A DNA stretch of 64,000 nucleotides from a virus, in the IMG/VR virus record IMGVR_UViG_3300032287_000965, positions 2,343 to 66,342 of that record; one strand, given 5' to 3'. The notes under the pieces were generated by a model that was not told the origin of the DNA, made no database searches, and worked only from the letters and a program-made list of their open reading frames with translations. Below, in pieces: positions 13,243 through 42,800 of this stretch (its first letter is position 1; every line of letters begins with the position of its first letter). Both the position numbers and the translations under genes were made by a program.

Positions 13243-14772
13243 TTAGTAGTACGCCGCTTTTCTGGCGCGGTGGTATATGGGTTCGTCTTTTTCGTCGGTA
13301 TCAAGGGTAATGAACCCCCCTTGCCTAAAGCGTAGCAGTGCTTGCGACGTAGTATCCACGAAGTCATCGTGTTCGCCAACCGGGAAGGCCGCTACTTCTT
13401 CGATAACTTCTCGTGCCCATCTGGTGTCGGGTGCCCAGACTTTGCCGCTGGTGAAGAGGTCGGCGACTGCGTTGAGTCGCACCATTTTGTCGTTGCCTCT
13501 GCTTGGGGAGAACTCCTGAACTGGAATACCCATTGCCCGAAGTTCTTGAATAAGCGGGGCACCTGCTGCCTTTTTCTCCACAATGAATGCATCGGGTTCC
13601 CATTCTTTATAGTGCTTCAACGCAGTTTGTTTTAAATCTGGAAACGCCATCCGCTCCTTGAACGCGTCCAACAGTATTAACTGTGGCGTGTCGTTCTCTT
13701 CTTCGTTGTACCAAATTCCCCACGTGGTGCAGGCTGAATAGTCGGAGTTGTTCTTGGTCTCAAAGGCCGTATCCCACGACTGAATAATGTATTCGCATTG
13801 CGGGGGGTCGTCACTTTCCCAGATGCGCCAGTGCTTGCGCGAGATGATGGCCGAGTTCTCTGAGGTGGGGCTTTGCATGTACTGGGCGTTCCAGTACCGG
13901 GGGTCGAGTGACGCCTTGACTTTCTTTAACTGCTCCAGCGGCCACTGCTCTGGCCACAGGCTTTTCTCGTTCTCGTCGTTCTCATTCAAGATGGCCGGGA
14001 GTTCTACGATCTCCCACGGCTCGGCATCCGGGTTTCTGGTCTGGTAGTCGATAAGCCGCCCGGTCAAGTCCAACAGCGACCATCTGGTCATAATGACAAT
14101 AATTGCCCCACCGGGCATCAGACGTTGCAGGGGGCCTGTCTGAAACCAACTCCACGCCGTATCGAACGCGAGTCTTGAATTTGATTTAACGTCCTGTTCG
14201 CTATGCGGGTCATCAATAACAAATAAGTCAGCACCGCGACCAGCCAAAGCACCACCGACACCCGCTGCGTAATACTGACCTCCGGCTCCGGTACTCCACT
14301 TTCCTGCTGCTTTCTGGTCATCTGCAATCCGCGTATCTGGGTAAAGTTCTTGGTACTCTTCTGACTCAATCAGGTTTCGCACCCGCCGTCCAAAGTCTTC
14401 CGACAAGCCCGCCGTGTGGGTGCCCATGATGATCTTCTTGTCGGGGTACTTACCTAAAAAATAAGCTGGGAACAGGTAAGACGAGAACTCGGACTTACCG
14501 TGGCGTGGTGCGATATTGATAATGACCCGCTTCTTTTTGCCGCTGATCACATCCTCAAAGATCTTTGAGAGCTTCCGGTGGTGGGGGCCGATCTTAAATC
14601 CCGGATACACATGGGTGGCAAACCCAAGCATGGAGTCCCTACCGATTACTTTACTGGCGCGGGCAGCGCGTTCTTCCAAGTCGGCAAGTAGTTCTGCTTT
14701 TTCTCGGGGGGTTAGGGTTGGGAGGGCGCGTTGTAGCGCCGTTATCTCTTCAGGACTCAGTACTGGGTTCAT
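13243..14772 (-). CDS. terL: Terminase large subunit
   Basis: Walker A APRHGKS, Walker B FVIDDP, coupling motif MTRW, nuclease SWDTA...DYSA and HDD.VD. Confidence 0.95.
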   Translation of the reverse strand: MNPVLSPEEITALQRALPTLTPREKAELLADLEERAARASKVIGRDSMLGFATHVYPGFKIGPHHRKLSKIFEDVISGKKKRVIINIAPRHGKSEFSSYLFPAYFLGKYPDKKIIMGTHTAGLSEDFGRRVRNLIESEEYQELYPDTRIADDQKAAGKWSTGAGGQYYAAGVGGALAGRGADLFVIDDPHSEQDVKSNSRLAFDTAWSWFQTGPLQRLMPGGAIIVIMTRWSLLDLTGRLIDYQTRNPDAEPWEIVELPAILNENDENEKSLWPEQWPLEQLKKVKASLDPRYWNAQYMQSPTSENSAIISRKHWRIWESDDPPQCEYIIQSWDTAFETKNNSDYSACTTWGIWYNEEENDTPQLILLDAFKERMAFPDLKQTALKHYKEWEPDAFIVEKKAAGAPLIQELRAMGIPVQEFSPSRGNDKMVRLNAVADLFTSGKVWAPDTRWAREVIEEVAAFPVGEHDDFVDTTSQALLRFRQGGFITLDTDEKDEPIYHRARKAAYY

Positions 14773-15355
14773 TGTCTACACTTTGACATTCTATTTCTTC
14801 GACTTCTCTGACATCCGTGATGTCCACGATCTTGGCGAATTTACCCAGCTTTTCCTTGATCCGCGCTTCCAGTTCAGCGTCGGACAACTCTGTCTTCTTA
14901 ATCTCGATCTTCTCGGTGAACAGCCCCACTTCCGTGACTTTGCCCAGAAGCGCCAATGCTTTAAGCCTGACGCTGGCTGTCGGATGGTTGGTTTCTTCCA
15001 GTATCTTGGCCACCGTATACCCGCGTAGCTCCTTGGCCTGATTGATGAACTCCCAATCGTACGCCGTTAGCATTCCAACAAGGTGTTGTACCGCTGCGGG
15101 GGTTTTGATTTCAGCTAATGCAGCGCGGGAGTGCTCGTCGGGCTGGGCGGTGACGATATTGGTGAAGGCCGTTCTGGCTGCTTGGGACTCCAACTCATTG
15201 GCGACCTCGTCGCTGGCCGCGCCCAGACTTTTTAACCAGTCGGCGGTATCTACTTTGGCATCTACCAAGTCTGCCGGAGCAGTTTTTTCAAGCGTGACGA
15301 AGCCAGCGGAGTCGTCGTCCACATCGGGGGTGAATTCTATTAGGTGATCCAACAT
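14750..15355 (-). CDS. terS: Terminase small subunit (putative)
   Basis: Directly upstream of and overlapping terL; RLKAL.LLGK...GLF.EK.E motif; start trimmed to ATG 15355 with AAGGGA SD. Confidence 0.7.
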   Translation of the reverse strand: MLDHLIEFTPDVDDDSAGFVTLEKTAPADLVDAKVDTADWLKSLGAASDEVANELESQAARTAFTNIVTAQPDEHSRAALAEIKTPAAVQHLVGMLTAYDWEFINQAKELRGYTVAKILEETNHPTASVRLKALALLGKVTEVGLFTEKIEIKKTELSDAELEARIKEKLGKFAKIVDITDVREVEEIECQSVDNEPSTES

Positions 15356-15366
15356 GCGCAGGTCCC

Positions 15367-15396
15367 TTGCGTACCTCGTTGCGCGGAGTGTATAGT
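15367..15396 (+). promoter_or_regulatory. sigma70-type promoter for the candidate sRNA
   Basis: TTGCGT (15367-72), 18 nt, TATAGT (15391-96). Confidence 0.55.
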
Positions 15397-15415
15397 GTGT
15401 AAAGCAAGTGCGCAA
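15387..15415 (-). promoter_or_regulatory. sigma70-type promoter for terS/packaging-head operon
   Basis: Minus strand TTGCGC (15415-10), 17 nt, TACACT (15392-87); gives a ~25-nt leader containing the terS SD. Confidence 0.55.
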
Positions 15416-15495
15416 GTGGCAACTCTTGACATTTGCTTCTCCTTTGCTCGTCTCCGGGCATCTTTGGCCCCCGATCCCCCTCGGGGGCTTTTTTT
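15402..15495 (+). ncRNA. Candidate trans-acting anti-RBS small RNA (~94 nt)
   Basis: Bounded by a promoter and an intrinsic terminator; three hairpins; CATTTGCTTCTCCTTTG (15430-46) is complementary to the RBS+start of several plus-strand genes. Confidence 0.6.
15467..15495 (+). terminator. Intrinsic terminator
   Basis: GCCCCCGA-TCCCCC-TCGGGGGC followed by T7; no plus-strand CDS upstream to explain it. Confidence 0.8.
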
Positions 15496-15505
15496 GGGCT
15501 GTGTT

Positions 15506-15521
15506 TGTCCAACGTTTGACA
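15506..15521. promoter_or_regulatory. Putative operator TGTC-N8-GACA (copy 1)
   Basis: Reverse complement TGTCAAACGTTGGACA matches 31676-31691 at 14/16. Confidence 0.45.
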
Positions 15522-15708
15522 GTGTTGTTATAATTTTTTTAATAATAGTGGGGGGTTTTGTAGTAGTGATGGAAAAGTTATCAAGGTGAAAACGAAAATA
15601 GTGGGGATGGTTACGGAATAGTGTTCTATGGCGACGGGTATGCCACCCCAAAAAAGGGGTCATGGGGGTACGGTGGGGTCGCAAAGTTGCCGAAATTGCA
15701 CCGAAAAG

Positions 15709-15723
15709 GGGTCATTCTGACCC
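15709..15723. repeat. GGGTCA-N3-TGACCC palindrome, copy 1
   Basis: GGGTCATTCTGACCC upstream of the first early gene. Confidence 0.85.
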
Positions 15724-15817
15724 GAAAAAGGCTCTGGAAATGCCACACTTGCGATAATGGCTCTACCAAATGGCGCTGTGCCACTGGTAAACACTCAATC
15801 AATCGAAAGGAATCACC

Positions 15818-16195
15818 ATGAACAAGCAGACACAAGCCAAAGTAAACACAATCGTATCCAAGTTTCTTGATGCATCAGACGATCTTGTCATAAGCCTGCA
15901 CTCCGAAGGCTTGACCACAGACGCAGAGCAGAGACCGTACGTCATCGTTGCAGTATGCGCGAAATACACCGAAGGCAAAGGCTGGAATGAATCCGCGAGT
16001 GGCAAAGTCATGCTCGATACGAAGCACAAGCGCTATGAGTTCCTGAAGACCAAAGTGCGCGATGTCATGGCGGCACTGAAGGGCGAGACGCGTAGCGCGT
16101 CATCTGGCAAAACCGATCCGGTTGACGCGATTATCCGTGCCTTCAACAAGCTCGATGCGAAGCAACAGCGCGCCGTCATCAAGGCACTGGCTTGA
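15818..16195 (+). CDS. Early hypothetical protein
   Basis: 125 aa; GAAAGGAATCACCATG RBS. Confidence 0.8.
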   Translation: MNKQTQAKVNTIVSKFLDASDDLVISLHSEGLTTDAEQRPYVIVAVCAKYTEGKGWNESASGKVMLDTKHKRYEFLKTKVRDVMAALKGETRSASSGKTDPVDAIIRAFNKLDAKQQRAVIKALA

Positions 16196-16198
16196 TTT

Positions 16199-16215
16199 CG
16201 GGTCAACGTGACCCG
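16199..16215. repeat. Palindrome, copy 2
   Basis: CGGGTCAACGTGACCCG followed by a T-tract. Confidence 0.9.
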
Positions 16216-16292
16216 TTTTTTCCACGGGGCATCGGCGTGAGGTCTGGCTGGTGTTCCGTTATCTGTCTAACCACCACCGAAAGGCGTTAATC

Positions 16293-16490
16293 ATGAAATT
16301 CGCACATATCCCAAAAGCAGCGTACTCAATCGGGCAAGTCATCACCGTACACGGCAAGCCCATGCGTGTGGAAAGCTACACCCATACCGGAAAAAACGTA
16401 GTCGTACATTCATTGGAAGGCGCACCGCGCTTTGAGCGGATTGTCTGTATCTGTACAGACGCGCAAGCCATTGAAGCCATTACAAACTAA
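16293..16490 (+). CDS. Early hypothetical protein
   Basis: Start trimmed to ATG 16293 (MKFAHIPK) after GAAAGG. Confidence 0.7.
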   Translation: MKFAHIPKAAYSIGQVITVHGKPMRVESYTHTGKNVVVHSLEGAPRFERIVCICTDAQAIEAITN

Positions 16491-16497
16491 CCAAAAA

Positions 16498-16514
16498 CGG
16501 GTCAACCTGACCCG
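16498..16514. repeat. Palindrome, copy 3
   Basis: CGGGTCAACCTGACCCG. Confidence 0.9.
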
Positions 16515-16538
16515 AAATTAACCCAAAGGAGCATCACC

Positions 16539-16751
16539 ATGGAATACGAAACAATGAAATGCAAAGGCTTTTGGTTGCCGACTGACCCGACTGCGAAGGC
16601 TGTTGGAATTATGGACGTACTCATAGCCAGAGGTAGTTGGGACGAGGTAGAGGGCGCCGATGACGAGCGCATCTTCTACTACATGGACGGAGCTGAGTTA
16701 CAGCGCGGGGATATTATCTCTGACGGCTTTGTTGTAATTGAAATTAACTAA
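16539..16751 (+). CDS. Early hypothetical protein
   Basis: 70 aa; AAAGGAGCATCACCATG RBS. Confidence 0.75.
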   Translation: MEYETMKCKGFWLPTDPTAKAVGIMDVLIARGSWDEVEGADDERIFYYMDGAELQRGDIISDGFVVIEIN

Positions 16752-16767
16752 CCAGAAAGGAATCATC

Positions 16768-16959
16768 ATGGAATACCAAAAATACACCCGCCATACCTTC
16801 AAGCGCCTGACAGCCGATGAAGTCCGAGAGTTCCGCGAACTACAAGAAGCCCAATCCATTGCATGGATGACGGGCAACAAGAGCCGAGCCAAAGAACTGG
16901 GCAAAGTACTGGGCGAACTGCGTAACAGCAACCTCGCCTACCGCAACCTGTATGCGTAA
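16768..16959 (+). CDS. Early hypothetical protein
   Basis: Start trimmed to ATG 16768; GAAAGGAATCATCATG RBS. Confidence 0.75.
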   Translation: MEYQKYTRHTFKRLTADEVREFRELQEAQSIAWMTGNKSRAKELGKVLGELRNSNLAYRNLYA

Positions 16960-16966
16960 CCAAAAT

Positions 16967-16983
16967 CGGGTCAACCTGACCCG
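16967..16983. repeat. Palindrome, copy 4
   Basis: CGGGTCAACCTGACCCG. Confidence 0.9.
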
Positions 16984-17011
16984 TTTATCCACCCCTGAAA
17001 GGAGCATCATC

Positions 17012-17161
17012 ATGAAAGACCAAACAACCATCGACAAAGTAGTAGCGCAACTTCAACAAGACATTGCCAGCGGTGACCTAACTGCGATTGAAGAACTGCT
17101 GCGCTTTGTGCCTGAGCAAAACCTGCTTGCGTACCTGCCCGAAATTACCCACAACCACTGA
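17012..17161 (+). CDS. Early hypothetical protein (49 aa)
   Basis: GAAAGGAGCATCATCATG RBS; MKDQTTIDKV...GDLTAIEELL. Confidence 0.7.
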   Translation: MKDQTTIDKVVAQLQQDIASGDLTAIEELLRFVPEQNLLAYLPEITHNH

Positions 17162-17172
17162 AAGGAACCACC

Positions 17173-17379
17173 ATGAAACTAATCAAAGAATCCACAGGTA
17201 TCGAAGTCAAGGCAGGAGACGTAGCGCACGACTTCAGGGGCGAAGCAGCCATCGTTACAGGCTGGGCGTTGCCCAGACACGCAGGATCAACGGGGAGGGT
17301 TTACGTCAAAGAGATGGGAGACAGGGGATTCACAGGCGAGTACTACCCATCTGTATACGGCATGAAATGGGTGGAATGA
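17173..17379 (+). CDS. Early hypothetical protein
   Basis: 68 aa; GAAAGGAACCACCATG RBS. Confidence 0.75.
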   Translation: MKLIKESTGIEVKAGDVAHDFRGEAAIVTGWALPRHAGSTGRVYVKEMGDRGFTGEYYPSVYGMKWVE

Positions 17380-17746
17380 AGATTACTACAAAAAAGGGGT
17401 CAAAATGACCCCTTTTTCCACCTATCCATGATTACTACAAGTGGACAAGAAAAAAGACAGCGAAAACGTAGCGCCATCAAGGCGTATCCCAAAAACAGGC
17501 ACATACATACATCTATTTAAATATATATATATATATAGGAGAGTATTTGTATGTACGTGCGGAGAACGAAAAGCTTTTGTCTTTTTTGGTAAGCAGGGGC
17601 TTTCTTATTTCTCCATACCGATAGATAAACGAACCACTTCCTGTGCTCACCCGCACCCACACTGCCAAAGCACTGTCCAAAAACTTGTCCGACTGTGTTA
17701 ATCTTGGATACCGCCTTGGATACCACTATTAAAAAGGGTAGTAATC
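17380..17746. other. Non-coding AT-rich region with short repeats; candidate replication origin
   Basis: (AT)n tract at ~17515-17537; GATTACTACAA x2 (17381, 17430); CTTGGATACC x2 (17703, 17715); no convincing CDS. Confidence 0.45.
17396..17412. repeat. Palindrome, copy 5
   Basis: GGGGTCAAAATGACCCC flanked by A- and T-tracts; could double as a terminator. Confidence 0.85.
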
Positions 17747-18573: not shown

Positions 18574-18601
18574 AAATTCAACCAACCGAAAGGAGCAACA
18601 C

Positions 18602-18859
18602 ATGAAGTATTACATTGGCAGGATCGAAGAAAGCAATGGCGGCATGGAGTACAACGACCGCTTCCTGTTCACAACCAAGGGCAACCCAGACAAGTACGCC
18701 GACAAGGTAGCAATGGAGTGGCGCGGTTGTACTCGCGCAGACTGGGACAAGGAACACGATGCGTACTGGTCTGACTGCACCCTGATCTGGGCGGGGGCAG
18801 TGAATGAAATCCCGAAGGAAGACTTCGCTGTCCTGAGTAAGTACATAGCCGTCCTGTAA
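18602..18859 (+). CDS. Early hypothetical protein
   Basis: 85 aa; leader CAACCAACCGAAAGGAGCAACACATGA identical to that of the next gene. Confidence 0.8.
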   Translation: MKYYIGRIEESNGGMEYNDRFLFTTKGNPDKYADKVAMEWRGCTRADWDKEHDAYWSDCTLIWAGAVNEIPKEDFAVLSKYIAVL

Positions 18860-18885
18860 CCACAACCAACCGAAAGGAGCAACAC

Positions 18886-19194
18886 ATGAGCCAGAGTTTT
18901 TATACCGTAGCCGTTTACATGGAAGACCGCGCATTCGGCGGGCACGAGGAGGGTGGCTGGTACTACGACACCGCCGAGCTATGCATGGAGCCTGAAGCAG
19001 CGCAGTACCTGCGAGGGTTTAGTGATGAGGGCGAGGCGTACACCTACGCTATTGACCTGCACAACATCCTGACCAAGTGGAACGAAGGCAGACCAGAGAC
19101 GAGCAGCGTCTTATCCGAGGGCAGGTACGCAGCCATCGTCAGTGAAGGTATGCCCAAGCCCCACTACCCAGAAACAACACCACGCTATTCGTAA
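18886..19194 (+). CDS. Early hypothetical protein
   Basis: 102 aa; DR.FGG.EEGGWYYD motif and C-terminal P..YP...PRY. Confidence 0.8.
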   Translation: MSQSFYTVAVYMEDRAFGGHEEGGWYYDTAELCMEPEAAQYLRGFSDEGEAYTYAIDLHNILTKWNEGRPETSSVLSEGRYAAIVSEGMPKPHYPETTPRYS

Positions 19195-22073: not shown

Positions 22074-22093
22074 TTTTTTAAAAGGAGAAGCAA

Positions 22094-22321
22094 GTGGAAG
22101 ACAAACGTTTAAGAACCCATGCAGGTAAGTTCGAAGTGGTACTCAGCCCTGAAGAAAACTTTGGGTACTTCGAACACGAGGACTACGGCGATGAGTGGGG
22201 TGGTGGCCTGTGGTTCGAGGGCAAGAGCCTGATTGACTACGATGGTGTGTATGAGTTGCCAAGCGAAGTCATTGCAGGTATTCGTGAACTGGGCTACATC
22301 GTAGCCCAAGAGTTTGAATAG
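22094..22321 (+). CDS. Hypothetical protein
   Basis: GTG start after AAAGGAGAAGCAA; GGLWF..K.L.DYDGV.ELP motif. Confidence 0.75.
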   Translation: MEDKRLRTHAGKFEVVLSPEENFGYFEHEDYGDEWGGGLWFEGKSLIDYDGVYELPSEVIAGIRELGYIVAQEFE

Positions 22322-22949: not shown

Positions 22950-23582
22950 ATGTCCAACTTAGCCACTGCATTACAAATCGCACTAGCCAAAAAAACTGAA
23001 CAGGAGAAGCAAATGCAAACACGTACAACTACACCAGAAGACATCAAGACCATCGCCAACGCTTGGGCGAAAGAAGACCCACGGGATGACGCAAGACCTG
23101 CGCTGCCCCATGCGTTCAAGCCCACCAACAACGTCAGCCGTGAGACGTTCAATGCGGTGCGGGACAACCCACGACTGCAACACAAAGACATAGCCCGTAT
23201 GCTGTCCAACCGTGGGTTCAATGCGGCTTCCATAGGCTCACTGCTCACGCAGATGCACAACTGCGGCATGGTTGCAAGAGATGACAACGGGCGCTACACC
23301 GCACTACAACCTGAGTACACGCCAATCAAGGCAAGCAAGAAAAAGAAAGTGGCTGTGCCCGTAATCAAGAAGAAACAAACGAAGGCAGGCATCGCCGCGC
23401 TCAACACGCAGGATGGCGTGGAGAAGAAGCTGGTGACCATAACCCGGCGCACAGAGCCAGCCCCCGCTCCTATCACACCCACCGCTGTTGTCTTTGACCC
23501 AGAGCAGCTACTATCAACACTTTCTTTTGCCCAAGTCATGGCGCTGTACAAACGCATCAAGACCATGGTGGGAGAGGCATGA
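22950..23582 (+). CDS. Winged-helix DNA-binding protein (putative); alternative start at 23013
   Basis: TFN.VRDNP.L....I...L...G......SLL.Q....G.V wHTH-like pattern; in-frame ATG 23013 preceded by AGGAGAAGCAA. Confidence 0.6.
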
Positions 23583-24181
23583 TGCAGACCAAAGACTATC
23601 GCGTAACGGTCAAGGTACGCAACGCTCGCATCATCAACGCGCTTGCAGAACGAGGGGAAGTGGTAGGGCAGATTGCGGCAACCAAGATCGGCATATCGTA
23701 CGCGAAGCTCTTGGCGTTATCCAACATAACGCTATCGCCCATCGATGCAGAGGGCAACATCATCCCCGAAGTACTGAAGCTATGCGACTATCTCAATAAG
23801 ATGCCGTTGGATTTGTTTTCTGTGGAACAGATTGTGCCATTGAAGACCAACACAGCGGAGTTGGATATGTCCATAGACGAGGTGGAGATGCTGATGCTAC
23901 CTGCATCAGAACGGCAAGACCCTGCGCTACTGCTTGCAGATGGGCAGTCAAACCACGCAATCAGGTATGCACTGGAGACGTTGCCCCCCAGAGAAGCCAA
24001 GGTCTTGCAGTTACGCTTCGGCATTGACTGTGAAGAGCATACCTACGATGAGCTGGGGAAAGTCATGGGTATCAGTAAAGAGCGTGTGCGACAGATTGAA
24101 GCAAGCGCATTGCGTAAATTGCGACACCCGTACAGGTCAGATGCTTTGCGGCGGGCAGCGCCCATGTTAGGAGAGGCATGA
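23579..24181 (+). CDS. Stand-alone sigma70 region-4 domain protein
   Basis: C-terminus [15 protein letters not shown]...[31 protein letters not shown] closely mirrors RpoD region 4; no region 2 visible. Confidence 0.8.
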
Positions 24182-25855: not shown

Positions 25856-25870
25856 AACAAGGAGAAGCAA

Positions 25871-26155
25871 ATGACTGAAGAATTTAACAAGTGGTGGGAT
25901 TCAGACGCCGTGACACGTGACGCATCTTACGGCAGGTGGGACGCGGATAATATTCCCAAGAACAATCCGTATAGTGTAGACACCCCTGTCTACTGGGCAT
26001 GGGAAGGATGGCAAGCGGCGTTGAAAGTAAAGCGCGAATGGCAGGGGCTGACGGATGGTGAGATTGACGCTTTGCATAAAAAAGATCGGGCATGGCCTCT
26101 GTATTCAAACATTGCCAGAGACATCGAAGCCAAGCTAAAGGAGAAGAACACATGA
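25871..26155 (+). CDS. Hypothetical protein ending W.GLTD.EI...KLKEKNT
   Basis: AAGGAGAAGCAAATG RBS; C-terminal module shared with the next gene. Confidence 0.7.
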   Translation: MTEEFNKWWDSDAVTRDASYGRWDADNIPKNNPYSVDTPVYWAWEGWQAALKVKREWQGLTDGEIDALHKKDRAWPLYSNIARDIEAKLKEKNT

Positions 26156-26367
26156 GCGAATGTCCGAACTGCGAACGATACAAAGAGAGCGCCAAGAATT
26201 GGCGGCACAAAGCGTATGAGTTATCCGGTCACCCATTGCCGTGGGATCGTGGCGATACATGGGTAGGGCTGACGGATGAGGAAATAAAAGAAATACTGGA
26301 CTGCGGCAGACCTGACTTAGTCAACATTAAAAAAGCAGAGCAAAAGCTGAAGGAGAAGAACACTTGA
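26152..26367 (+). CDS. Hypothetical protein ending W.GLTD.EI...KLKEKNT
   Basis: Start trimmed to ATG 26152 (MSECPNC). Confidence 0.7.
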   Translation: MSECPNCERYKESAKNWRHKAYELSGHPLPWDRGDTWVGLTDEEIKEILDCGRPDLVNIKKAEQKLKEKNT

Positions 26368-28337
26368 GTAAACCATACGAACGAATCATCGTACTTGACT
26401 TCGAGACTGCATGGGGGCGGGCTGTGAAGCTTGGCTTCTCTTGCCAGACGAACGAAGAGTACCTGCGTGACCCACGCTTCAAAGCATGGGGGTTGTGTTG
26501 GAAGGACTACGGTGACCCGTTACCTGCCACATGGGTACGTGGCCGTGACATCGAGAAGTGGGCGAAAGATTTTGACTGGAGTAAGACCGCAGTCGTTGCT
26601 CAGAACGCGCTGTTCGATGTGTCCATACTGGCGTGGGTGTACGGCTGTCATCCTGCGTTTATCTTTGACACGCTGTCCATGGGTCGTGCTGTGCGCGGTG
26701 TCGAGGCTGGCAACAGCTTGAAGAAGATGGCAGAGGACTTCGGTCTTGAGGCCAAGGGGCAGGGGCTGGCTTCGTCAGAGAACTACCTTGACGAGTTACC
26801 GTTCCACGTTGAGCAGGAGTTGGCGGATTACTGCCGCCATGATGTGTACCTGTGCGAAGAAATCTTTAAGCGTTTAGTCGATGGCTACCCTGCATCTGAG
26901 TTACGGTTAATCGACATGACGCTAAAGATGTACACCCAACCACGCTTGGTGCTCGATGAGCAGATGCTGTTCCAAGCCATTGAAGAAGAAAGGACAACAC
27001 GTGAAGAACTTTTGGCGCGACTTAACGTGGACGATGCAACGCTGGCGAGTAACCCTAAGTTCGCGGATATTTTGGCTTCGCTGGGATGTGCAGTTCCATA
27101 CAAGAAGAGTAAGACGACAGGTAAGCAGACGCTTGCACTTGCTAAGAATGACGCTATGTTCCAAGCACTATTGCATAGCGACAAAGAAGATGTCCGACTC
27201 TTATGCGAAGCACGACTGCGAGTTAAATCTACGACTGAGCGCACACGAGCGCAAAGATTCTTAGACATCTCAAGCCGTGGTCCACTGCCCGTACCGCTTG
27301 CCTACTACGGTGCGACTACTGGGCGGTGGACGGCAGCCAAGGGGAGCGCAATCAACATGCAGAACCTAAAGCGTGGCAGCTTCTTGCGCAAGGCGATCAT
27401 GGCTCCTGATGGGTACGCACTGGTCGTGGGTGACTTGTCTCAGATCGAGCCGAGGGTGTTGGCATGGCTGTCGGACTACGACGAGATGCTGGGTATCTTC
27501 CGCGCAGGGGTAGACCCCTACGCTGCCTTCGGGGCGCAGATGTTTCGTATCCCTAACATGACCAAGGACAGCCATCCAGAGCTACGGCAGAGCGCTAAGT
27601 CAGCGTTGCTTGGCTGTGGGTATGGGTTGGGTTGGGCAAGCTTTGCCAGCCAGTTGCTGACCGGCTTTCTGGGCGCTCCTCCTGTGCGATACGAGGCGAC
27701 ATTTGCCAGACAGTTGGGAGCTAACCAGAAACTTGCAGAAGAGTTTTTGAGTTGGCAGGACACCGAGGCCAAGCTGCGGGACATCCCCCACACATGTAGC
27801 TTGAAAGAGTTGGTGTATCACGCCATCGCAGCCAAGCGCATCATCGACATCTACCGCAAGACCGCCTACCCGGTTGTTTCCTTTTGGGAAATGTGTACAG
27901 GCTTGATCGAGCGCAGTCTTTACGGTGGCGAGGAGTTCGTGTATAAATGTCTAATCTTCCGTAAGGGCGAGATTGAATTGCCCAACGGAATGAAACTGCT
28001 TTATCCAGACTTACGCATCGAACCAGACGATAAAGGTAGGAGCCAGTGGGTATACGGGCCAGACGCTACCAAGTTGTACGCAGGTAAAGTAACAAACAAT
28101 GTTACTCAGGCATTGGCACGTATTGTGATGACTGATGGGATGCTGCGGGTATCTAAAAGATACCCTGTGGTTGGCACCGTCCATGATGAACAGATCGCCA
28201 TGGTGCCGGAAGGAGAAGCCGCTGAAGCCTTAGATTGGGTTTTGGCGCAGATGACTATGGAGCCTTCATACATGCGGGGGATTCCGTTATCAGCAGATGG
28301 TGGTACACACAAGCGGTATGGCATGGCTAAGAACTAA
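26364..28337 (+). CDS. polA: Family A DNA polymerase with 3'-5' exonuclease (Leu762 type)
   Basis: ExoI LDFET, ExoII QNALFD, ExoIII YCRHD; TGRW, NMQN; motif A DLSQIEPR; motif B RQSAKSALLGCGYG; motif C VHDE. Confidence 0.93.
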   Translation: MSKPYERIIVLDFETAWGRAVKLGFSCQTNEEYLRDPRFKAWGLCWKDYGDPLPATWVRGRDIEKWAKDFDWSKTAVVAQNALFDVSILAWVYGCHPAFIFDTLSMGRAVRGVEAGNSLKKMAEDFGLEAKGQGLASSENYLDELPFHVEQELADYCRHDVYLCEEIFKRLVDGYPASELRLIDMTLKMYTQPRLVLDEQMLFQAIEEERTTREELLARLNVDDATLASNPKFADILASLGCAVPYKKSKTTGKQTLALAKNDAMFQALLHSDKEDVRLLCEARLRVKSTTERTRAQRFLDISSRGPLPVPLAYYGATTGRWTAAKGSAINMQNLKRGSFLRKAIMAPDGYALVVGDLSQIEPRVLAWLSDYDEMLGIFRAGVDPYAAFGAQMFRIPNMTKDSHPELRQSAKSALLGCGYGLGWASFASQLLTGFLGAPPVRYEATFARQLGANQKLAEEFLSWQDTEAKLRDIPHTCSLKELVYHAIAAKRIIDIYRKTAYPVVSFWEMCTGLIERSLYGGEEFVYKCLIFRKGEIELPNGMKLLYPDLRIEPDDKGRSQWVYGPDATKLYAGKVTNNVTQALARIVMTDGMLRVSKRYPVVGTVHDEQIAMVPEGEAAEALDWVLAQMTMEPSYMRGIPLSADGGTHKRYGMAKN

Positions 28338-28348
28338 AGGAGAAGCAA

Positions 28349-28678
28349 TTGGATAAAACCAGAAAACAGAAGTTAGAGTTACCACGCAAGATCAGAGTAG
28401 GTAGGAAGCTGTACACCGTTGACATATTGGAGACGATGCTGAAAGACGGTGACATGGCGCGAGTGCATTACGACCGCAACCGTATTGAGCTTGGCAAGAA
28501 GAGCAGCGTCACTGGTAGGCGGTACTCAAGAAAAGAAATGAACGATTCGTTCTGGCATGAGTTGGTACATGCCATCCTGTACGACATGGATGAGCACCGA
28601 CTTAACCGCAACGAGAAGTTTGTTACCGAGTTTGCCCACCGGCTGTCAGAAGCCATTGACTCTGCGAGGTTTGAATGA
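28349..28678 (+). CDS. HExxH metallopeptidase-like protein
   Basis: FWHELVHAIL...NE.FV; TTG start after AAAGGAGAAGCAA. Confidence 0.65.
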   Translation: MDKTRKQKLELPRKIRVGRKLYTVDILETMLKDGDMARVHYDRNRIELGKKSSVTGRRYSRKEMNDSFWHELVHAILYDMDEHRLNRNEKFVTEFAHRLSEAIDSARFE

Positions 28679-29841: not shown

Positions 29842-30068
29842 CACGCAACTACAAGTCCGAGTACGAAAACTACCACGGCAAGCCAGAGCAAGTTAAAAAC
29901 CGTGCCGAGCGAGTCAAAGCTAGGCGCATGATGGAGAAGACGGGCGCTGTTACTAAAGGTGATGGCAAAGATGTAGACCACAAGAAGCCGCTGCGTTCAG
30001 GCGGCACAACCACAAAGAGCAACCTCAGAGTTCGCAGCAAGTCAGCAAACAGAAGTGATAATAAATAG
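29838..30068 (+). CDS. Small HNH-like protein
   Basis: DVDHKKPL..GG.....NLRV.....NR. Confidence 0.7.
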   Translation: MTRNYKSEYENYHGKPEQVKNRAERVKARRMMEKTGAVTKGDGKDVDHKKPLRSGGTTTKSNLRVRSKSANRSDNK

Positions 30069-30077
30069 GGGAAGTAA

Positions 30078-31640
30078 ATGCAGATCGTCGATAACAAAGC
30101 GTTGCTCTTTCGCACTCGCAACCCCGATAAGTATCGGGTAATTCCTAAACATAAAATACTCAACAAAAGCGCTGACGGTACATCAGAAATCGCTGTTTAC
30201 TGGGGGCTAGATGAAGTACGTGTACTCAAGAATCTCGGTGTCAAAAATGTCCCGTCGCCAATTACTCGTCGGTATGCTTGGCCCGGAAAGTATAAACCTA
30301 TGGCACACCAGATTGAAACGGCGGCGTTTCTCACTATGCATAAGAAGGCGTTTGTGTTCTCGGAGCCGGGAACTGGCAAGACTCTATCGGCTCTTTGGGC
30401 GGCGGACTACTTGATGCAACGTGGGGATGTACGGCGCTGTCTCATTCTGTGCCCGCTCTCCATCATGCAGTCAGCATGGCTAGGTGACTTGAACAACAGC
30501 ATCATCCATCGCTCTGCCGTTATCGCGCACCACGCGCAAGCTAGTCGCCGTATCGAGATGGTTCAGCAAGACTACGAGTTCGTGATCGCTAACTACGATG
30601 GCTTGAATCTTATTGCGGATGAGATCATCAACGATGGTCGCTTTGATCTAATCATTGTCGATGAAGCCAACGCATACAAGACCATGACCACCAAGCGTTG
30701 GAAGGCGTTGAAGTCTATTGTCGGACCCAACACCCACCTGTGGATGATGACGGGTACGCCAGCATCGCAGTCACCTGCGGATGCGTACGGCTTGGCGCGT
30801 CTGGTCAACCCTGATGGTGTGCCTAAGTTCTTCACAGGCTGGCGCGATAAGGTCATGAACAAAGTCACGCAGTTTAAGTGGGTGCCCAAGGCCAGCGCAG
30901 CGCAGGATGTTCACGAAGCCTTGCAGCCCGCCATACGCTTTACCAAAGAGCAGTGCCTTGACTTGCCACCAGTACTCACCATGACGCGAGAGGTACCACT
31001 GACACCACAGCAAGCCAAGTACTACAACCTGCTGAAGGAACGCATGATGGTGCAAGCAGCAGGGGAGACCATCACTGCTGTGAATGCCGCTGCCGGGGTA
31101 TCTAAGCTCTTGCAAATATCATGCGGTGCAGCATACACGGACGACAAAGAAGTCATTGAGTTCGATGCTGCCCCACGCCTCTCAGTGCTGGAGGAAATAC
31201 TGGAAGAGACCTCGCGCAAGGTCATCATCTTCGCTTTGTTCCGCAGCACCATCAGCACCATACACACGCACTTGCTCAAAAGAAACATCACTGCCGAGGT
31301 CATCCACGGTGACATCACACCGCCCAAACGCGCAGACATTATTCGACGTTTCCAGACAGAGAAAGACCCACGAGTGCTTGTCATGCAGCCTCAAGCAACT
31401 GCACACGGTATCACTCTGACTGCGGCTGACACGGTGGTGTTCTTCGGTCCGTTGATGTCTGTTGAACAATATATCCAGTGCATCGCACGGGCTGACCGCA
31501 AGGGGCAGAACTCAGACAAAGTCACTGTCATTCACATTCAAGGCAGTCCGATTGAGAAGCGTATGTTCAAGGCGCTGGAGGGCAAGGTCACAGATAACAC
31601 TCTGTTAACGGAGATGTTCAACGCTGAAATAAAAACGTGA
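30078..31640 (+). CDS. SNF2-family (SF2) helicase
   Basis: Q motif HQ, Walker A EPGTGKT, Walker B IVDEA, MTGTP, GITLT.A, Q..AR..R.GQ. Confidence 0.9.
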   Translation: MQIVDNKALLFRTRNPDKYRVIPKHKILNKSADGTSEIAVYWGLDEVRVLKNLGVKNVPSPITRRYAWPGKYKPMAHQIETAAFLTMHKKAFVFSEPGTGKTLSALWAADYLMQRGDVRRCLILCPLSIMQSAWLGDLNNSIIHRSAVIAHHAQASRRIEMVQQDYEFVIANYDGLNLIADEIINDGRFDLIIVDEANAYKTMTTKRWKALKSIVGPNTHLWMMTGTPASQSPADAYGLARLVNPDGVPKFFTGWRDKVMNKVTQFKWVPKASAAQDVHEALQPAIRFTKEQCLDLPPVLTMTREVPLTPQQAKYYNLLKERMMVQAAGETITAVNAAAGVSKLLQISCGAAYTDDKEVIEFDAAPRLSVLEEILEETSRKVIIFALFRSTISTIHTHLLKRNITAEVIHGDITPPKRADIIRRFQTEKDPRVLVMQPQATAHGITLTAADTVVFFGPLMSVEQYIQCIARADRKGQNSDKVTVIHIQGSPIEKRMFKALEGKVTDNTLLTEMFNAEIKT

Positions 31641-31691: not shown

Positions 31692-31710
31692 AAAACAATA
31701 GGAGAAGCAA

Positions 31711-32115
31711 ATGAGTGACGAGATCATTCCGCTGGATAAACTCGCAAAAATTTATCGCAAGATAAAGACGGAGATCGACACGCTGACGCAAGAGTACGAC
31801 ACCAAGTTGGAACAACTCAAAGCACAGCAAGACGAACTTCGTTTCGCAATGAAAGACCAGATGAAAGCGCTTGGCGTCAAGTCGGTCAACACCACCTTCG
31901 GTACCGTGTCATTGGTAAACAAAACCCGTTACAACACACAGGACTGGGACTCGTTCAAGAAGTTCATCATCGAGCACGATGTCGTTGACCTGTTGGAGAA
32001 ACGGATTGCGCAAGCCAACATGGCGCGGTTCCTTGAAGAAAATCCGGCGCTTGTACCACCCGGATTAAACGCGTACACGGACTTCGAAGTTCGTGTGACT
32101 AAACCTACTAAGTGA
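31711..32115 (+). CDS. Coiled-coil replication-module protein (Gam-like architecture)
   Basis: N-terminal coiled coil; S..T..GTV, DW..F..FI, PPG motifs. Confidence 0.55.
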   Translation: MSDEIIPLDKLAKIYRKIKTEIDTLTQEYDTKLEQLKAQQDELRFAMKDQMKALGVKSVNTTFGTVSLVNKTRYNTQDWDSFKKFIIEHDVVDLLEKRIAQANMARFLEENPALVPPGLNAYTDFEVRVTKPTK

Positions 32116-36712: not shown

Positions 36713-36860
36713 ACGTGGGCAGGGGTTCTTCGTCCCTTGTCTGGACACGGAGGCCGTCATACAAGACGGCCTCCGCAAAGCTTTAGCTCACCGCATCTTC
36801 CACGCCAAGGCCAGCGTGGGAGTAAAGAACGGCCTTGTCGGGGTCTGGTTTAGTCGGTGA
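36669..36860 (+). CDS. Small hypothetical protein
   Basis: YPW..L..G..FFVP...GVW..R motif; last gene of the plus arm. Confidence 0.6.
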   Translation: MKKTLQVTYPWSQLKRGQGFFVPCLDTEAVIQDGLRKALAHRIFHAKASVGVKNGLVGVWFSR

Positions 36861-39800
36861 CCGACAGGAACTTTTCAACATAGTTGTTGCGAATCTTATC
36901 AATCTGCTCAACCCGCTTAGTCTTATCTTCTTCTGACATAAACGGATTGGCAATTACATCGCGGCGCAGTTTCGACAGTTCGCCCACCTTCTGTTGCACA
37001 GTGCCTGACAACGAAGCGTAAATTACTTTGTTGCGGTACTCATCCAAAAACTCACGGGCTTGATCCCGCTTGCCTTCTGTCAGCAACCTACCGAATGTCC
37101 CCTTGGCTTGCTGAATCTCCAACATACGCTCGTACCCTGCATCCAACGTGCCCCGGCCTTCAACCGGCTGGAACATACCGCCAATGAACGGCGTGTCGTG
37201 CATCTTCTTGGTGGGCTTCGCTACTTCAGCAGCTTCCGTATTCAACAGCGGGTTGGCCAATGACACCAACGCAATACCCAAAGAACCCGTGTAGCCACGT
37301 GTCAGATGATCCCAACCGATTGGCGTGATGCCTGCATCACCCGTGATGCCGCCCAGCAACTTGGCAAGTTCAGTCGTGGACTCACGATAGCGTTCGGTTG
37401 GCAGCATGGTTTTGACCTCGCGCTGCGACTCGATGTCACCGGCAAAGAACGACTTACCCAGATACAACTCAACAACGGGCTTGACCGCTTGCGGCAGACT
37501 GAGCGGGTTCGACAGCGCCACCAGCTTACCCATACCCTTGGTGATGTCCTCTGACTTCCTATCGTCAGCGCCCATATTGAACACCGCCTCCGGCAACGCT
37601 TTGAACAGGTAGCCCAATTCAAATGGGATAGGCACCTTCAGCGGCTCTTCTTCGCCCGGAATATAAACAAACCAGTTAGCCAGACGCTCTTCAGGCTTGG
37701 CGTTTTTGTACGCTTCGTCATCTTGCATCATGGCGGCGTACGCCATCGTGCCTGCGGCCAGCAGCAACCCGCGTTGGAAAAGCTTCTTGCGAATCTCAAG
37801 CTGCTCATTAAACGGCATCTCGCCTTTGAATGCACGGTACAGAACGTCGAGACCCTGAATCTGCGCATTGAAGAACGGGATCATGACACTCAGCGCTTGC
37901 ATACTGGGAGACAAACCACGACGGCTAAAGTTCATCGACTCCAGCGTACGCAGCAGCGCCTCCATCTCCGACATGCCTTTGGCAATCGAATCTTTATAAA
38001 CAACCGCACGAGTAGCAGCATCGCCTTGCATCGCAAACGCATCAGCACGAGCCATTAGTTTTGCCCAGCCCGGTTTCCCCGCTGTTATGTCACGCAAGGC
38101 TTTGTCCATATCGCGCTGGTCGCCAGTAAAGACGTTACTGGATATGGCACCAGAGGCCATAAGCTTGCGCTCTACTTCGCTGCGCCCGGCCACCATACTG
38201 GAAAGTTCCTTGAACGAATTCAAGATCGGCACACCGCTAGTTCCTGTGGTCATCCATGCAGTCAGCGGATCACGGATAGCCTGCTTCAAGGCGTATGCTG
38301 GGTTGCGAGTCACGAACTTACGCAGGATGTCGGCAGGCATACCCATCGCCTTGATCGCAAACGGCAGCGTGGTCTTGATACCTTCCATACCTTTGACGAT
38401 CAGATCAGCTGGGATGCCAAAATCGTTGCTGTCAATCACCGCAAAGTGATCTTCGCCCTTGACTTTGAAGCGCACGGTGTTGGGGCCAGAAGGACCACTA
38501 CCTTCATCCAGTGTGCTGGCAATACCCAGCTTGCGCAGGAGGAACGCAGAGTCCTTGACCATCTGGTTACGCAAAGCCATGTTCGTCAGCATGAACGTGT
38601 TCTGCACGGCGCTGGTAAAGATCGGCATGATCTGGTCGTTGCTGCCCACCAGTTGCTGAAGCTCTGGCTCATCCTTGATATTACCAATACGAACAGGACG
38701 CTCTTTGTCCACCATCAGTTCAACAACGTCGCCGTTCATGCGGTAGAACGGTACATAAGGCAACGCCTTCAATTCAGCGGCTTGCTTCTGCGACATAGCG
38801 CCAGTCTGCACAAGGAAATCTACCAAGCCGTTGTTGTACTCCTGATAGATTCTATTGGCTTCAACGAACGCATCTTTGGCTTGCGGGTTCTGCTTCAGAT
38901 ACGCCATGACTTCAGCGTGTTCTGCTTTAGACCGAGCAGGGTCTTTCAGGTTCAGCTTCTCCCAGCCCACCTTCTCAGCGCGAAGACCTGCAATATATGC
39001 GGTCAGCATCGCTTCGGCTTGGGTGTCGTTCTTGATGCCGGACTTCGACAGGGCTTCTGCCACCTTAATCATGTTAGCGCCGGGACGGCTTTCGTAAATG
39101 TAGCCCTTACCGTCATCCAGTTTTTTCAAATGCAAAGAACCACTGGTCAGCGCCTGAGTCGCATACTGGCTGCGCTGCTCACCAAAACGAAGGTAGTACT
39201 CACCCTGTGTCGCTTCCAGCGAACTGATAAGCCCCTCGTCCTTACCCTTCTTGAACGCCTCAGACAACGCAGCAAAGCGGTCAACAAACTGCACCCGGCC
39301 TGTCAGACCAAGGATGTTGCCCATCAGGGTATCTTTTGTTGACTTCGACTTACCAACAAACGACGAGGCCATATCTGTTGGCTCTTCTTTCGACCGGAAA
39401 GAAAAGAAACCCGGCTTCTCTTCCTGAACGCCAACGTCCTTGGGGGCGTAGCGTGGCTGTTCTGGAACCTCAACATAGTCAGCGTCAACAACTGTTTCTT
39501 CTTGCTTTAATTCCGGTGCAGTCAACTCACCAACCATAAGCGGCTCAAACTGTATGTTCTTTTTGGCTACGCCAACCGAAGCCAAAGCTTCTTTTATTTT
39601 TTTAATAACATTATTTAGTTCGGGCAAGTCACGGTTTGTTATCAACGAACGCAGTTGAAACTGCAAAACGCCTTCTGCATCTATTCCAGTACTGGGCGTC
39701 CCAAAGTATTCTTCTTGCCGTTCCAATCGAGTGTCAAAATTAGCATTAAATTTTGCAAAATCATTTGGCGTCATTAATTTAAACAGTTCTTTGGCAAACG

Positions 39801-42800
39801 ATTGCATTTGCTTTGCCACAGAATAATAAGCGTCTTCACCAAAATCTTTAATAGCACTAACCACAAGCGCGCTGTCTTCCGGGGTAGTAATGCTACCGTC
39901 CCTGTTTAAAACAACTTGACGTTTAACGCTGTACACATCTGCGGGAATAGTAGTTGAAAATAAATCAAAAGTTGCATCTACTATTTTTCTTGTGTTAGGT
40001 TCGTTATCTATTACATCAATTTGAGTTACATCTGGCGCTATCAAATGCAGCGTGTTACCGCCAGCATTAAGTGTTAAACGATTAATACGTGCGTCGCCAT
40101 CCAACAATAAAGTAGCGTAGTCTCTCGAAGATTCAACAAACTGTATTTGCGTTCCATCTGCCACACTTAGTGTTGGCATTACGGGGTCTTCGCCACGAAC
40201 AAGCACTTCAGTTATGCTTTTAACTTTAGGCAAAATAAGCGCGTCTTCGGTTTGTCCCATGTACACATGCTTTACCTGAACAAGTTGGGTAAACTCAATG
40301 TTATTTTTTGCCGCAAAGTTAATAGTGCCCAGCGCTTTAACATCTGTTATTTTTGTTGCAAACGATACGTGGCCGTCGGAAATTCTGCGTAGTGCTTTGT
40401 ACACATACGCAATTTTTTCTTCTGGCGTCTTTCCACGAGGCAACAAAAGTGTTCGACCACTAATTTGAATGCTTTCTGCTTTTTGAGCTACTGCATCAGC
40501 GGCAATTTTTTTAAAAATTTTATCCGCTTGCTCTTGTATGCTATCCCGTTGAGCAGTACTAAAATACGGCGCTGGAAGACTGACTGACACAACCCCGTTT
40601 GCATCATTGCGATCCCCGGTTAAAGTCAAAGAGTCCATAAAAAAGTGGCCTTCTTTATACGCATTAACGGCAGAGCGCACAAAAACATCATCTACTTTAC
40701 GCACTACTTTTTCTGACACATACGTGCCGTAACCAAACATTGGAAGATCCTGTAAAAAACCTGTTGTAATTTTAGTTTTTGAATCTTCTAACGCCTCAGC
40801 CATGTGTTGTTTTGTCGTACTGTCTGCGGCTTTAAAGAAACGAACGGTTTGTTCTGGAGTTAGAGTTCCTTCGGTTTGTATTGCATCAAGCATTACTTTT
40901 CTAAACTCAACGCCATCCAAATAGTCTTGGCTGCCAGCAAAACTTCTCTTCTTTAAAAAATCAGAAGCTATTTTTTGTTGCGCATCAGACAAAGATTGGT
41001 TGGGTGTATTTCCGCGAATCTCCCCGATTGATGTTGTACCATTCATTCGAATGGCGACTTCTGGCACACCGTTACTGTAGTAAATGTAAAAATCGCCTCT
41101 GTTCAACTGTTCTTTTGCAGTACCGACATCTCTACCGGTACACCACGAAGTACCCGCCGCTCCCGCGTTGAGAGCTACTGCTGCATCATAGTCGTCGGCC
41201 TGCGCAAACTTCTTCCAACCCTGCTTGCCAAGATTTAATTGTTTGTTGCGATCCGCCCGTTTTTGCAACCCATCAAGGAACGCATCTTTCAGTCCTTTGC
41301 CAGCGCGAAGCTCTTCAATAATTGCGTTGGCGGAGTCATGCCCAATCACAGCAACAGGGTGAAGGTTGTCATCGGATATGGTTACGAGTTTTAACCGCCC
41401 GTTTTTATCCGCTATAACACTGTACTTAGACGCAGCTTTAGCCACCAACGCCTGTTCTGCCAGCGTGTAATCTGGGTTTTGACGTAAGTACTCCGTTAAA
41501 TCTATGATGTCTTGAATTCGTTTTTTATTAACGTCATCCGCCTCAAGCATTTGATCGGACGGGTCCATTGATGCATACGCAATTACTTGCGGGTCAGCGG
41601 TAAAAAAGTCTTCTACGTTTGACGCGTCGTACTGTCTGCCATCAGGCATACGACTAAAAGAATCCCAATTAATAGCGGTAACAAATGCCTGTTTTATGTA
41701 GTCTTCCGGATGTGTGTTCATCATGGCAAGATAACCCGCCGCTAAACGATCCACATCTTCTGGCGTACGGTCTTTCTGTTTGATCTCAGGACCAAACTGT
41801 TCCGCAAACTGCTTCATCGAGTTACTACCGGTGTGCAGCGCCGCAATGTCTTTGGCTGAGTACTTCCTACTGACCGGTTTTTCAGCACGACCAATCTTGC
41901 TGCTGGAAGGAATCATCAACAGATCAACAGCTTTGAGCGCATTGCCCAGCATGTTCTCTGGAATCTTCACGCCAAGCATACGCAGGATGACGCTCTTCAG
42001 ACCTTCCCACAGGCTGGAGCCTTTCCACTTCTTATTGCGCAGTTGCTCTTGTAGGTTCCTGTTCGAGAAGACTTCAGCAGCAAACTCGGACAGGCTGCTC
42101 TTGGCGTTGGCGCTGGTGATCTTGGGGTCGTTCTTGATCGCGTTGTACATTGCAAGCAGTTCGCGCTTGGCGGCAATCTGCTCTTTGGTCAGCATGCTGT
42201 CCGGCATCTGGATCACGCGCTCGACAGCAGCGTGGGTGGCCTCGTGCAACAGAACTTCTTGAGACAGACCGCCATTGCGTGACAACTGAATCTGGGTGCT
42301 GATGGCTTCGCCCAGTACTTCCTTGCCTTCTGAATCAAACAGTTTGTCTTTAAGGACAATGTCCGTAGCGTCTAGCATACCGGCCAGACGCGCCGCAACC
42401 ACACGATTTATTTCAGATGCCTTGGGGTCATTGGCAATGCTGCGCAATACACCAGCGAGGTTGTTCGCCTCCAGCATCTTGACTTGTTCAGGCGATAAGT
42501 CGGGGCTTTCAACTTCCACACCACGGGCAAACTTGCCTTGTTCTTTCTCTCTTGCTTCAACTTCCTTTATTACTTTTTCTTGGGCGGCTTTAGTCATCGC
42601 CACCTGCATGGCGGTGCCTTTAGCTTCTTTGGCGGCTCGTGCTCTTTGGGTACGCTCACGGGCTTCTTGACGTTGTTGATAGTCAAAGGCCTCCCCTTTA
42701 GCTTCAGACTGTCCTGCTTCAAAAGCTTCTTGACGACGTTGCGATGCCGACTTGCTTTCTTCCGAACTGGTACGCATACTGCCCAGCTTGGCAATCTTAC

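Follow-up and report, generated by a model that had tools for sequence, protein, structure and literature searches.

The divergent control region and its RNA element

The window analysed here is a 64,000-nucleotide (nt) stretch of viral DNA that corresponds to bases 2343-66342 of the 66,342-bp IMG/VR virus record IMGVR_UViG_3300032287_000965, a record rated 100% complete. It contains a predicted small RNA (sRNA) element at 15403-15495 on the plus strand and, at six distant genes, a start-site word complementary to a segment of this RNA. The late genes occupy the minus strand from 15355 down to 1. They include the 201-aa first gene of the late operon (14750-15355), which lies at the terS position and has no family match, TerL (13243-14772), and a portal-sized gene of 837 aa. 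The plus strand carries the early and middle genes between about 15800 and 36712, and minus-strand genes appear again from 36850. The RNA element therefore sits in the divergent control region that separates the late from the early genes. In a protein search, TerL was about 50% identical to TerL of the Pelagibacter phages HTVC027P and HTVC023P and of phage DSL-LC04; a nucleotide search with 14700-16300 against deposited phages gave no match.

Three promoters are predicted around the element. The candidate small-RNA promoter (15367-15396, plus strand) has the exact pattern TTGCGT-18-TATAGT, with the -35 box at 15367-15372, an 18-nt spacer and the -10 box at 15391-15396. The divergent promoter of the packaging/head operon (15387-15415, minus strand) is composed of a -35 box TTGCGC (15415-15410), a 17-nt spacer and a -10 box TACACT (15392-15387), which overlaps the -10 box of the small-RNA promoter. 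The early promoter, TTGTCC-18-TATAAT with a TG (15505-15534, plus strand), is the sole site above the threshold of the promoter tool in 14500-16500. It is located directly 3' of the terminator of the RNA, which makes the RNA a separate unit. A near-palindrome, TGTCCAACGTTTGACA (15505-15522), overlaps this early promoter just past the RNA terminator.

The predicted RNA is about 93 nt long, with its 5' end placed from the -10 box and its 3' end at the U-run, and folds with -38.5 kcal/mol (z-score -4.4). Stem-loop 1 (15402-15438) is closed by pairing of AAGCAAGUG (15402-15410) with CAUUUGCUU (15430-15438), and its inner hairpin is variable. Stem-loop 2 (15445-15460) is found in the predicted fold and is supported by covarying pairs. 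The intrinsic terminator hairpin (15466-15489, tail to 15495) contains nine pairs, seven of them G-C, and a loop of six, and is followed by seven T. The seed CATTTGCTTCTCCTTTG (15430-15446) is the complement of the start-site word CAAAGGAGAAGCAAAUG. Within it, CUCCUU (15439-15444) is single-stranded, with an unpaired probability of about 1.0. The initial annotation of this DNA had proposed the 17-nt segment at 15430-15446, the promoter pattern, the terminator and a fold in which the 15402-15410 arm is paired and CUCCUU is exposed, and all of these were recovered. Its further suggestion that the UCUC and UCCCCC loops are also anti-Shine-Dalgarno-like did not hold, as these loops are not conserved: the loops of stem-loop 2 vary freely among relatives, and C-rich terminator loops occur in only part of the close relatives.

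An Rfam scan of the whole window, proposed earlier as a check of novelty, found no family at gathering level. The best sub-threshold match was RF02278 (25.9 bits against a gathering score of 50), covering only 15449-15495, the terminator half, and sX13 scored 14 bits against the element.

A start-site word at six middle-region genes

The 17-mer, with up to three mismatches allowed, has six matches where 0.23 are expected, and none of 100 shuffles reaches six. Its 11-nt core AGGAGAAGCAA occurs in five plus-strand copies, each directly 5' of a start codon, and in one minus-strand copy. To rank the sites, 83 start regions were compiled from the genes of the window and ordered by their duplex energy with the seed. 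The strongest duplex forms at the GTG of a 75-aa gene (22081-22096; 16 bp with one G-U; -25.9 kcal/mol), followed by the ATG at 23013 of a 189-aa protein (23002-23015; 14/14), the ATG of a Gam-like 134-aa gene (31700-31713; 14/14), the ATG of a 94-aa gene (25859-25873; 15/15), the TTG of a 109-aa gene (28336-28351; 13/13 over 28336-28348), whose word is kept in orthologues, and the ATG of a 520-aa SNF2 helicase (30067-30080; AGGGGAAGTAAATG; 14 bp with two G-U). All six are plus-strand sites within 22.08-31.71 kb, whereas the earliest genes (15.8-21 kb) use other ribosome-binding words, for example AAAGGAGCAACAC. The helicase matches the Pfam domain SNF2-rel_dom (3.2e-24), and the Gam-like gene matches PHROG 13900 together with a weak match to Mu Gam.

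The six sites thus take ranks 1-6 of 83, and none of 400 shuffled seeds equals this, with either every letter permuted or the CTCCT core left intact. When both strands of the window were scanned for duplexes, the five exact-core sites were the five best other than the seed's own locus, and the helicase site came eighth. The use of the word as ribosome-binding site and start codon of six plus-strand genes, which had been proposed with coordinates and pair counts, is borne out, as is the expectation that these sites would rank at the top of all start regions. At the helicase the two differing positions both give G-U wobbles, again as proposed. The site at 23002-23015 retains its 14/14 complementarity; its earlier description as an internal, in-frame ATG does not stand, since the open reading frames (ORFs) of relatives begin at 23013, which is probably the true start of the 189-aa gene.

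Other start-site words are repeated as well. An identical 25-nt sequence, AACCAACCGAAAGGAGCAACACATG, precedes two early genes (18577-18604 and 18861-18888), and AAGGAGAAGAACAC precedes two middle genes (26136-26154 and 26348-26366), the DNA polymerase gene among them; the latter word is also kept in the relatives G009, G013, G016 and G017. Both match the RNA seed poorly (-17.6 to -18.3 kcal/mol).

Conservation and covariation of the RNA

Relatives were collected by searching IMG/VR with the 201-aa protein. This confirmed 139 related loci, of which 80 were kept and 76 had at least 300 nt upstream. The RNA element is present in 69 of these 76, and the seven without it form one clade with 59-60% protein identity. 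The layout is shared: a stem-loop with the 3' arm CAUUUGC(UU), an unpaired stretch of 6-8 nt (UUCUCCUU), a second hairpin, and a G+C-rich terminator with a U-run. Single-sequence folding gives this four-part structure in nearly all of 48 distinct versions, with the UCUCCU part unpaired at a probability of about 1.0. The TGCTT..C columns are invariant across the 48 sequences. The element itself ranges from 78 to 137 nt; the length differences are not multiples of three, and inserts of up to about 40 nt fall within the stem-1 loop. In this stem, the 5' arm changes along with the 3' arm (GAGUGGGUG/CGCUUGCUU, GGUGAUAUG/CAUGUUGCU), and many of the pairs are G-U. The seed is therefore both accessible and conserved, and the structure that flanks it varies by compensatory change.

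Covariation was assessed on several alignments. A plain MAFFT alignment of the 48 sequences misaligned the variable hairpins, and as a result RNAalifold recovered no more than the invariant GCAA/UUGC pairs and the upper part of the terminator. For this reason, a covariance model (R1) was built from 17 close sequences, with a structure written by hand from single-sequence folds. With these 17 sequences aligned by MAFFT only, this structure is 88.5% paired, compared with 83.3% for shuffles and 36-49% for versions with slid partners. The model matches the window once, on the plus strand only, with 101.9 bits. It also matched all 47 element-carrying relatives given to it, on one strand and once per locus, and none of four loci without the element. 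In the model-fitted alignment (A3), the paired share is 89.4% of cells, compared with 71.5% for shuffles and 40-49% when the 3' partner is slid by 1-3 columns. Pairs changed on both sides number 22 of 27 (stem-loop 2, 5/5; terminator, 9/9; stem 1, 8/13), and stem-loop 2 is paired in 98.1% of cells over 49 distinct rows. None of 500 shuffles reaches the observed values. All these figures are upper bounds, given the kinship of the sequences and an alignment that was fitted to the model. One locus has, some 800 nt away from its main copy, a weak second match to the model (L069:1806-1896, minus strand; 20.5 bits, E 0.014), which may be either a diverged second copy or a chance match.

The RNA is encoded on the plus strand. 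G-U pairs outnumber A-C pairs by 132 to 7; the plus-strand fold beats that of the reverse complement in 47 of 48 sequences, by a mean of 6.2 kcal/mol, in a comparison that requires no alignment; the U-run consistently lies 3' on the plus strand; and the model matches this strand only. Moreover, several features of the sequence mark the element as an independent unit, namely the 9/9 covarying terminator pairs, the position-conserved promoter hexamers, and the lack of conserved ORFs on both strands.

The promoters behave differently among the relatives. A plus-strand TTGnnn-17/18-TAnAnT keeps its position in the RNA-carrying relatives and shares a near-palindromic -10 region with the late promoter. 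The small-RNA -35 box of the L053 clade is parted by an insertion from the Shine-Dalgarno (SD) sequence of the first late gene (terS), which indicates that the box is conserved in its own right. The late promoter, TTGC[GA][CT]-17/18-TA[CT]A[CTG]T on the minus strand, is common to every relative, those that lack the RNA included. The RNA-less clade (L061, L062, L067, L073, L078, L079, L081) has TACACA where the small-RNA -10 box would be. Its late -10 box, TACAGT, ends 7 nt before the ATG, and for this reason the first late gene there is probably expressed from a leaderless mRNA. Sequences resembling TGTCnAA..TTnGACA follow the terminator in G002, G003, G009 and G013, and stand beside the late promoter in the RNA-less clade; this near-palindrome looks like an operator.

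In the window, a search for TTGCNN-16/18-TAYANT returned only the two promoters at the RNA locus, where 3.0 matches are expected by chance. As the count is not above expectation, this pattern was rejected as a promoter class. A 200-aa protein (23579-24181, plus strand) carries a clear Sigma70 region 4 domain (Pfam, 2.1e-20) without region 2, and could read the unusual TTGCnn -35 boxes of both overlapping promoters.

Co-variation of the seed with the start-site word

In complete relatives, the reverse copy of the word at the RNA locus is accompanied by exact copies on the early strand: one and six in G001, one and two in G002, one and four in G003, and one and five in G004. The word is kept at the orthologous helicase, Gam-like, 109-aa and 189-aa genes. 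Complementary sites thus occur at several mRNA starts, in numbers beyond chance, and are conserved. At the helicase in particular, the orthologues of all seven RNA-carrying relatives compared show complementarity to their own seed, and that of the RNA-less genome shows none.

The seed and the word also change together, as had been anticipated for an RNA that reads its own genome's start-site word. In the clade G005/G016/G017/G018, the complement of the seed is AAGGAGAAAGCAAGCG, with one extra A. The same extra A is found at the gene starts of G016, where GGAGAAAGCA precedes a 572-aa gene, the 519-aa helicase and the 137-aa Gam-like gene, and the canonical GGAGAAGCA is absent from this genome. 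Duplex energies computed with exchanged seeds show that, at the helicase start, the cognate seed pairs better than the swapped one, whichever way the seeds are exchanged. For the Gam-like start, the cognate seed is favoured by helix length, but not by one of the energies.

Two further comparisons concern the word where the SD is poor or the RNA is missing. At the helicase starts of G009 and G013, GAGAAGCAAATG is retained despite a degenerate SD, which points to selection on the word itself. G006 has a full early region and no match to the covariance model; its helicase start carries neither SD nor word, and its Gam-like start only GGAG.

A trans-acting antisense RNA as the favoured reading

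We favour, as moderately likely, the reading that the element encodes a trans-acting antisense RNA that acts on a regulon defined by the start-site word. This reading builds on the observed anatomy, conservation, strand, complementarity and co-variation of the RNA. It is well supported that these features define a new phage sRNA family with a start-site-word regulon. In the proposed mechanism, a non-coding RNA of about 93 nt would be transcribed on the plus strand from about 15403, starting at a promoter back to back with that of the packaging/head operon and ending at the terminator at 15495. Its seed would consist of the single-stranded UUCUCCU(U) together with the stem-1 3' arm CAUUUGC. This seed is predicted to pair with AGGAGAAGCAA-NUG, that is, with the SD, spacer and start codon of middle-region genes encoding the SNF2 helicase, the Gam-like protein, the 189-aa protein and three small proteins. 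Such pairing would mask ribosome-binding site and start codon alike and turn off translation of the whole set at once; one RNA probably switches these genes off together.

Pairing may nucleate at the exposed UUCUCCU, after which stem 1 would open. The stem-1 5' arm AAGCAAGUG appears to mimic the target, and target binding would be favoured, because this arm holds a G-U pair where the target gives A-U. An exposed UUCUCCU beside a half-sequestered seed fits a toehold model. The overlap between the small-RNA and late promoters makes it probable that the RNA is linked to the middle-to-late switch. We infer transcription from TTGCGT-18-TATAGT, repression as the outcome, the nucleation and stem-opening steps, and the timing by the late promoter.

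Several points weigh against this reading. TTGCGT-18-TATAGT agrees with the sigma-70 consensus at only 3/6 and 5/6 positions and stays under the threshold of the promoter tool. Three RNA-labelled sequencing runs, which contained 5-9% of the words sampled, gave on 13500-17500 only contigs of relatives (88-99% alike), which carry no strand, ends or level. One of these contigs, 301 nt long, spans 15247-15521; one run is probably DNA, and the contigs have no bearing on transcription. The alignment A3 is fitted to the model and contains two doubtful weak matches (E 0.014 and 0.1), and the relatives share kinship, so that counts of cells and loci are not independent. Similarly, the extra-A clade and the RNA-less clade represent one evolutionary event each. 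In G016, the energy at the Gam-like start is better with the swapped seed, although the helix is shorter. Distant relatives have fewer exact words, with one in G009 and none in the 9.7 kb of early region covered in G010. Moreover, a protein that reads the word would produce the same co-variation of all copies.

These points have to be set against what other explanations can account for. The structured RNA could be real and its role local, through promoter competition, interference with the late promoter, or an insulating terminator before the early promoter, with the word match left by common descent from a start site. The -10 boxes overlap, so that the two promoters must compete for polymerase, and the terminator lies 10 nt before the early promoter; in addition, both the transcription of the small RNA and its effect on targets are predicted from sequence alone. 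A purely local role is nevertheless unlikely. It gives no account of a seed that is the most conserved part of the element while both hairpins drift, of the single-stranded state of that seed, of the extra A common to the seed and distant gene starts, or of the word kept at helicase starts with a poor SD. Alternatively, the word could be a DNA or mRNA site of a phage protein, comparable to the stoperators of cluster A mycobacteriophages or to the sites of a translational repressor of the RegA type, with the copy at 15430-15446 as a further site in late-operon orientation. Every copy is indeed oriented with the transcription of the adjoining operon, and all copies co-vary within a genome, as the sites of one factor would. 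Owing to the insertions in the loop of stem 1, however, the spacing between word and late -35 box differs among relatives, from 0 to about 60 bp, and the word lies upstream of the conserved late promoter, which is situated between it and the first late gene, and thus outside the late mRNA. At the genes, the word holds an exact register with the start codon. At the RNA locus its complement forms one arm of an RNA helix, and the opposite arm co-varies with it and contains G-U pairs. We consider a protein site quite improbable.

The third explanation reads the motif as the ribosome-binding site and start of a translated minus-strand ORF of 30 aa (15432-15340), a leader peptide coupled to the first late gene, and had been named beforehand as the observation that would overturn the RNA. 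The word does form a well-spaced SD plus ATG, the ORF overlaps the start of the first late gene, and the ATG is kept in 52 of 70 loci (window included). In the other 18, however, it is replaced by ACG, ACA or GCG; the ATG-to-ACG change of close relatives corresponds to a change from U-A to U-G in stem 1 of the RNA. The ORF lengths are 1, 4, 6, 8, 9, 10, 13, 14, 26, 28, 30, 31, 39 and 42 codons, and no peptide is common across clades. The lost ATGs and the unlike lengths and peptides mean that this ORF is not conserved, though the word is nearly invariant. The conserved late promoter lies downstream of the word, and the hairpins fold better on the opposite strand. Together these observations leave the leader peptide extremely improbable, and the trans-acting antisense RNA as the favoured reading.

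If this reading is true, widespread uncultured aquatic phages address their own replication and recombination genes by one small RNA, the address being a shared ribosome-binding word that co-evolves with the seed. This would provide a concrete mechanism for temporal shut-off at the level of translation, together with a new RNA family that can be annotated. The natural pairs of seed and word with and without the extra A are ready orthogonal pairs for reporters.

Comparison with known systems

Trans-acting sRNAs are well known in bacteria. RsaE and RNAIII of S. aureus, sX13 of Xanthomonas and the Betaproteobacteria toxic sRNA (RF02278) use pyrimidine-rich anti-SD seeds on several mRNAs. The element resembles them in its hairpins, its Rho-independent terminator and its pyrimidine-rich seed for SD regions. 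It differs from them in showing no homology, in having its seed in a linker and a stem arm instead of C-rich loops, and in targeting phage genes that carry an 11-15-nt word, not a short G-rich motif. In phage T4, the RegB nuclease and the RegA repressor are proteins that shut off a temporal class of mRNAs via their translation-initiation regions. The shut-off logic would be the same here, whereas the specificity factor would be an RNA. The c4 RNA of phages P1 and P7 is cut from the transcript of its target's own operon, and uses two loop sequences on one target (icd/ant) in immunity; the present RNA, in contrast, has its own predicted promoter and terminator, and one linear seed for six dispersed sites. 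The likeness to c4 is that of a small structured phage RNA that pairs around a distant ribosome-binding site and blocks translation, as c4 is described in PMC12197685. In the literature searched for phage sRNAs at shared ribosome-binding sites (PMC12197685 among it), the sources, as far as their accessible text goes, report only prophage sRNAs, 24B_1, c4 and similar cases; these are mostly prophage RNAs acting on host genes, or antisense RNAs in cis or within an operon, such as c4.

The closest parallel to the word comes from cluster K mycobacteriophages and their start-associated sequences (SAS; Pope et al. 2011, PMC3203893). In both systems an asymmetric repeated word containing AGGAG stands a few bases before starts, mostly ATG. 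In both, the word occurs at non-structural genes only, in one orientation, at genes of different families, and extends beyond the reach of 16S rRNA pairing (PMC3203893). Moreover, four K1 genomes have a single copy in opposite orientation, as is the case here (PMC3203893), where five exact cores and one variant on the plus strand are accompanied by one reverse copy at 15430-15446, a pattern also seen in G001-G004. The SAS differ in their 13-bp consensus, GGGATAGGAGCCC, which has only AGGAG in common with AGGAGAAGCAA; in their phages and hosts; and in copy number, with 13-19 per genome (PMC3203893) against 5-9 here. In addition, the word described here runs up to the start codon. Whether the SAS are read by an RNA or by a protein was left open by the authors (PMC3203893), and later papers still call their role unknown in 2024 (PMC11373665) and 2025 (PMC12699233). 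The portions of the cluster K literature covered report no antisense RNA for the SAS.

These likenesses suggest a broader proposal, in which phage start-associated words generally would be address tags of phage antisense RNAs, the opening of late transcription and the translational shut-off of the replication genes would in this lineage be joined in one 50-bp switch, and the cluster K SAS would work alike. We regard this generalization as somewhat unlikely; it offers a hypothesis for the mycobacteriophage SAS, the function of which has been open since 2011.

A possible counterpart was seen in Mycobacterium phage Anaya, which has 16 SAS copies on the plus strand of the stretch read. Its lone reverse SAS (record 59870-59882; L139:39871-39883) is located in a 385-bp gene-free gap after a terminator-like hairpin. 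The gap folds strongly (z-score -5.0) and displays the reverse SAS in an apical loop of 10 nt, CCUCCUAUCC. Conservation of the region extends to 145 cluster K records. Six of eight aligned cluster K phages (Anaya, L139, and L140-L146) keep the hairpin with a CCUCCU-type loop, and the changes in its stem are of the G-U type; ShedlockHolmes and SirPhilip are the two without it. This hairpin could be an antisense partner of the SAS, and is presented as a lead rather than a finding.

Other features of the window

Beyond the RNA locus, a 3010-aa protein is encoded at 36850-45882 on the minus strand. It has a single PHROG match, of unknown function, which covers its last 665 residues. In the early region, GGGTCA-N3-TGACCC hairpins (15709-15723 and 16199-16215) scored as terminator-like sites, and may mark the boundary between early and middle genes.

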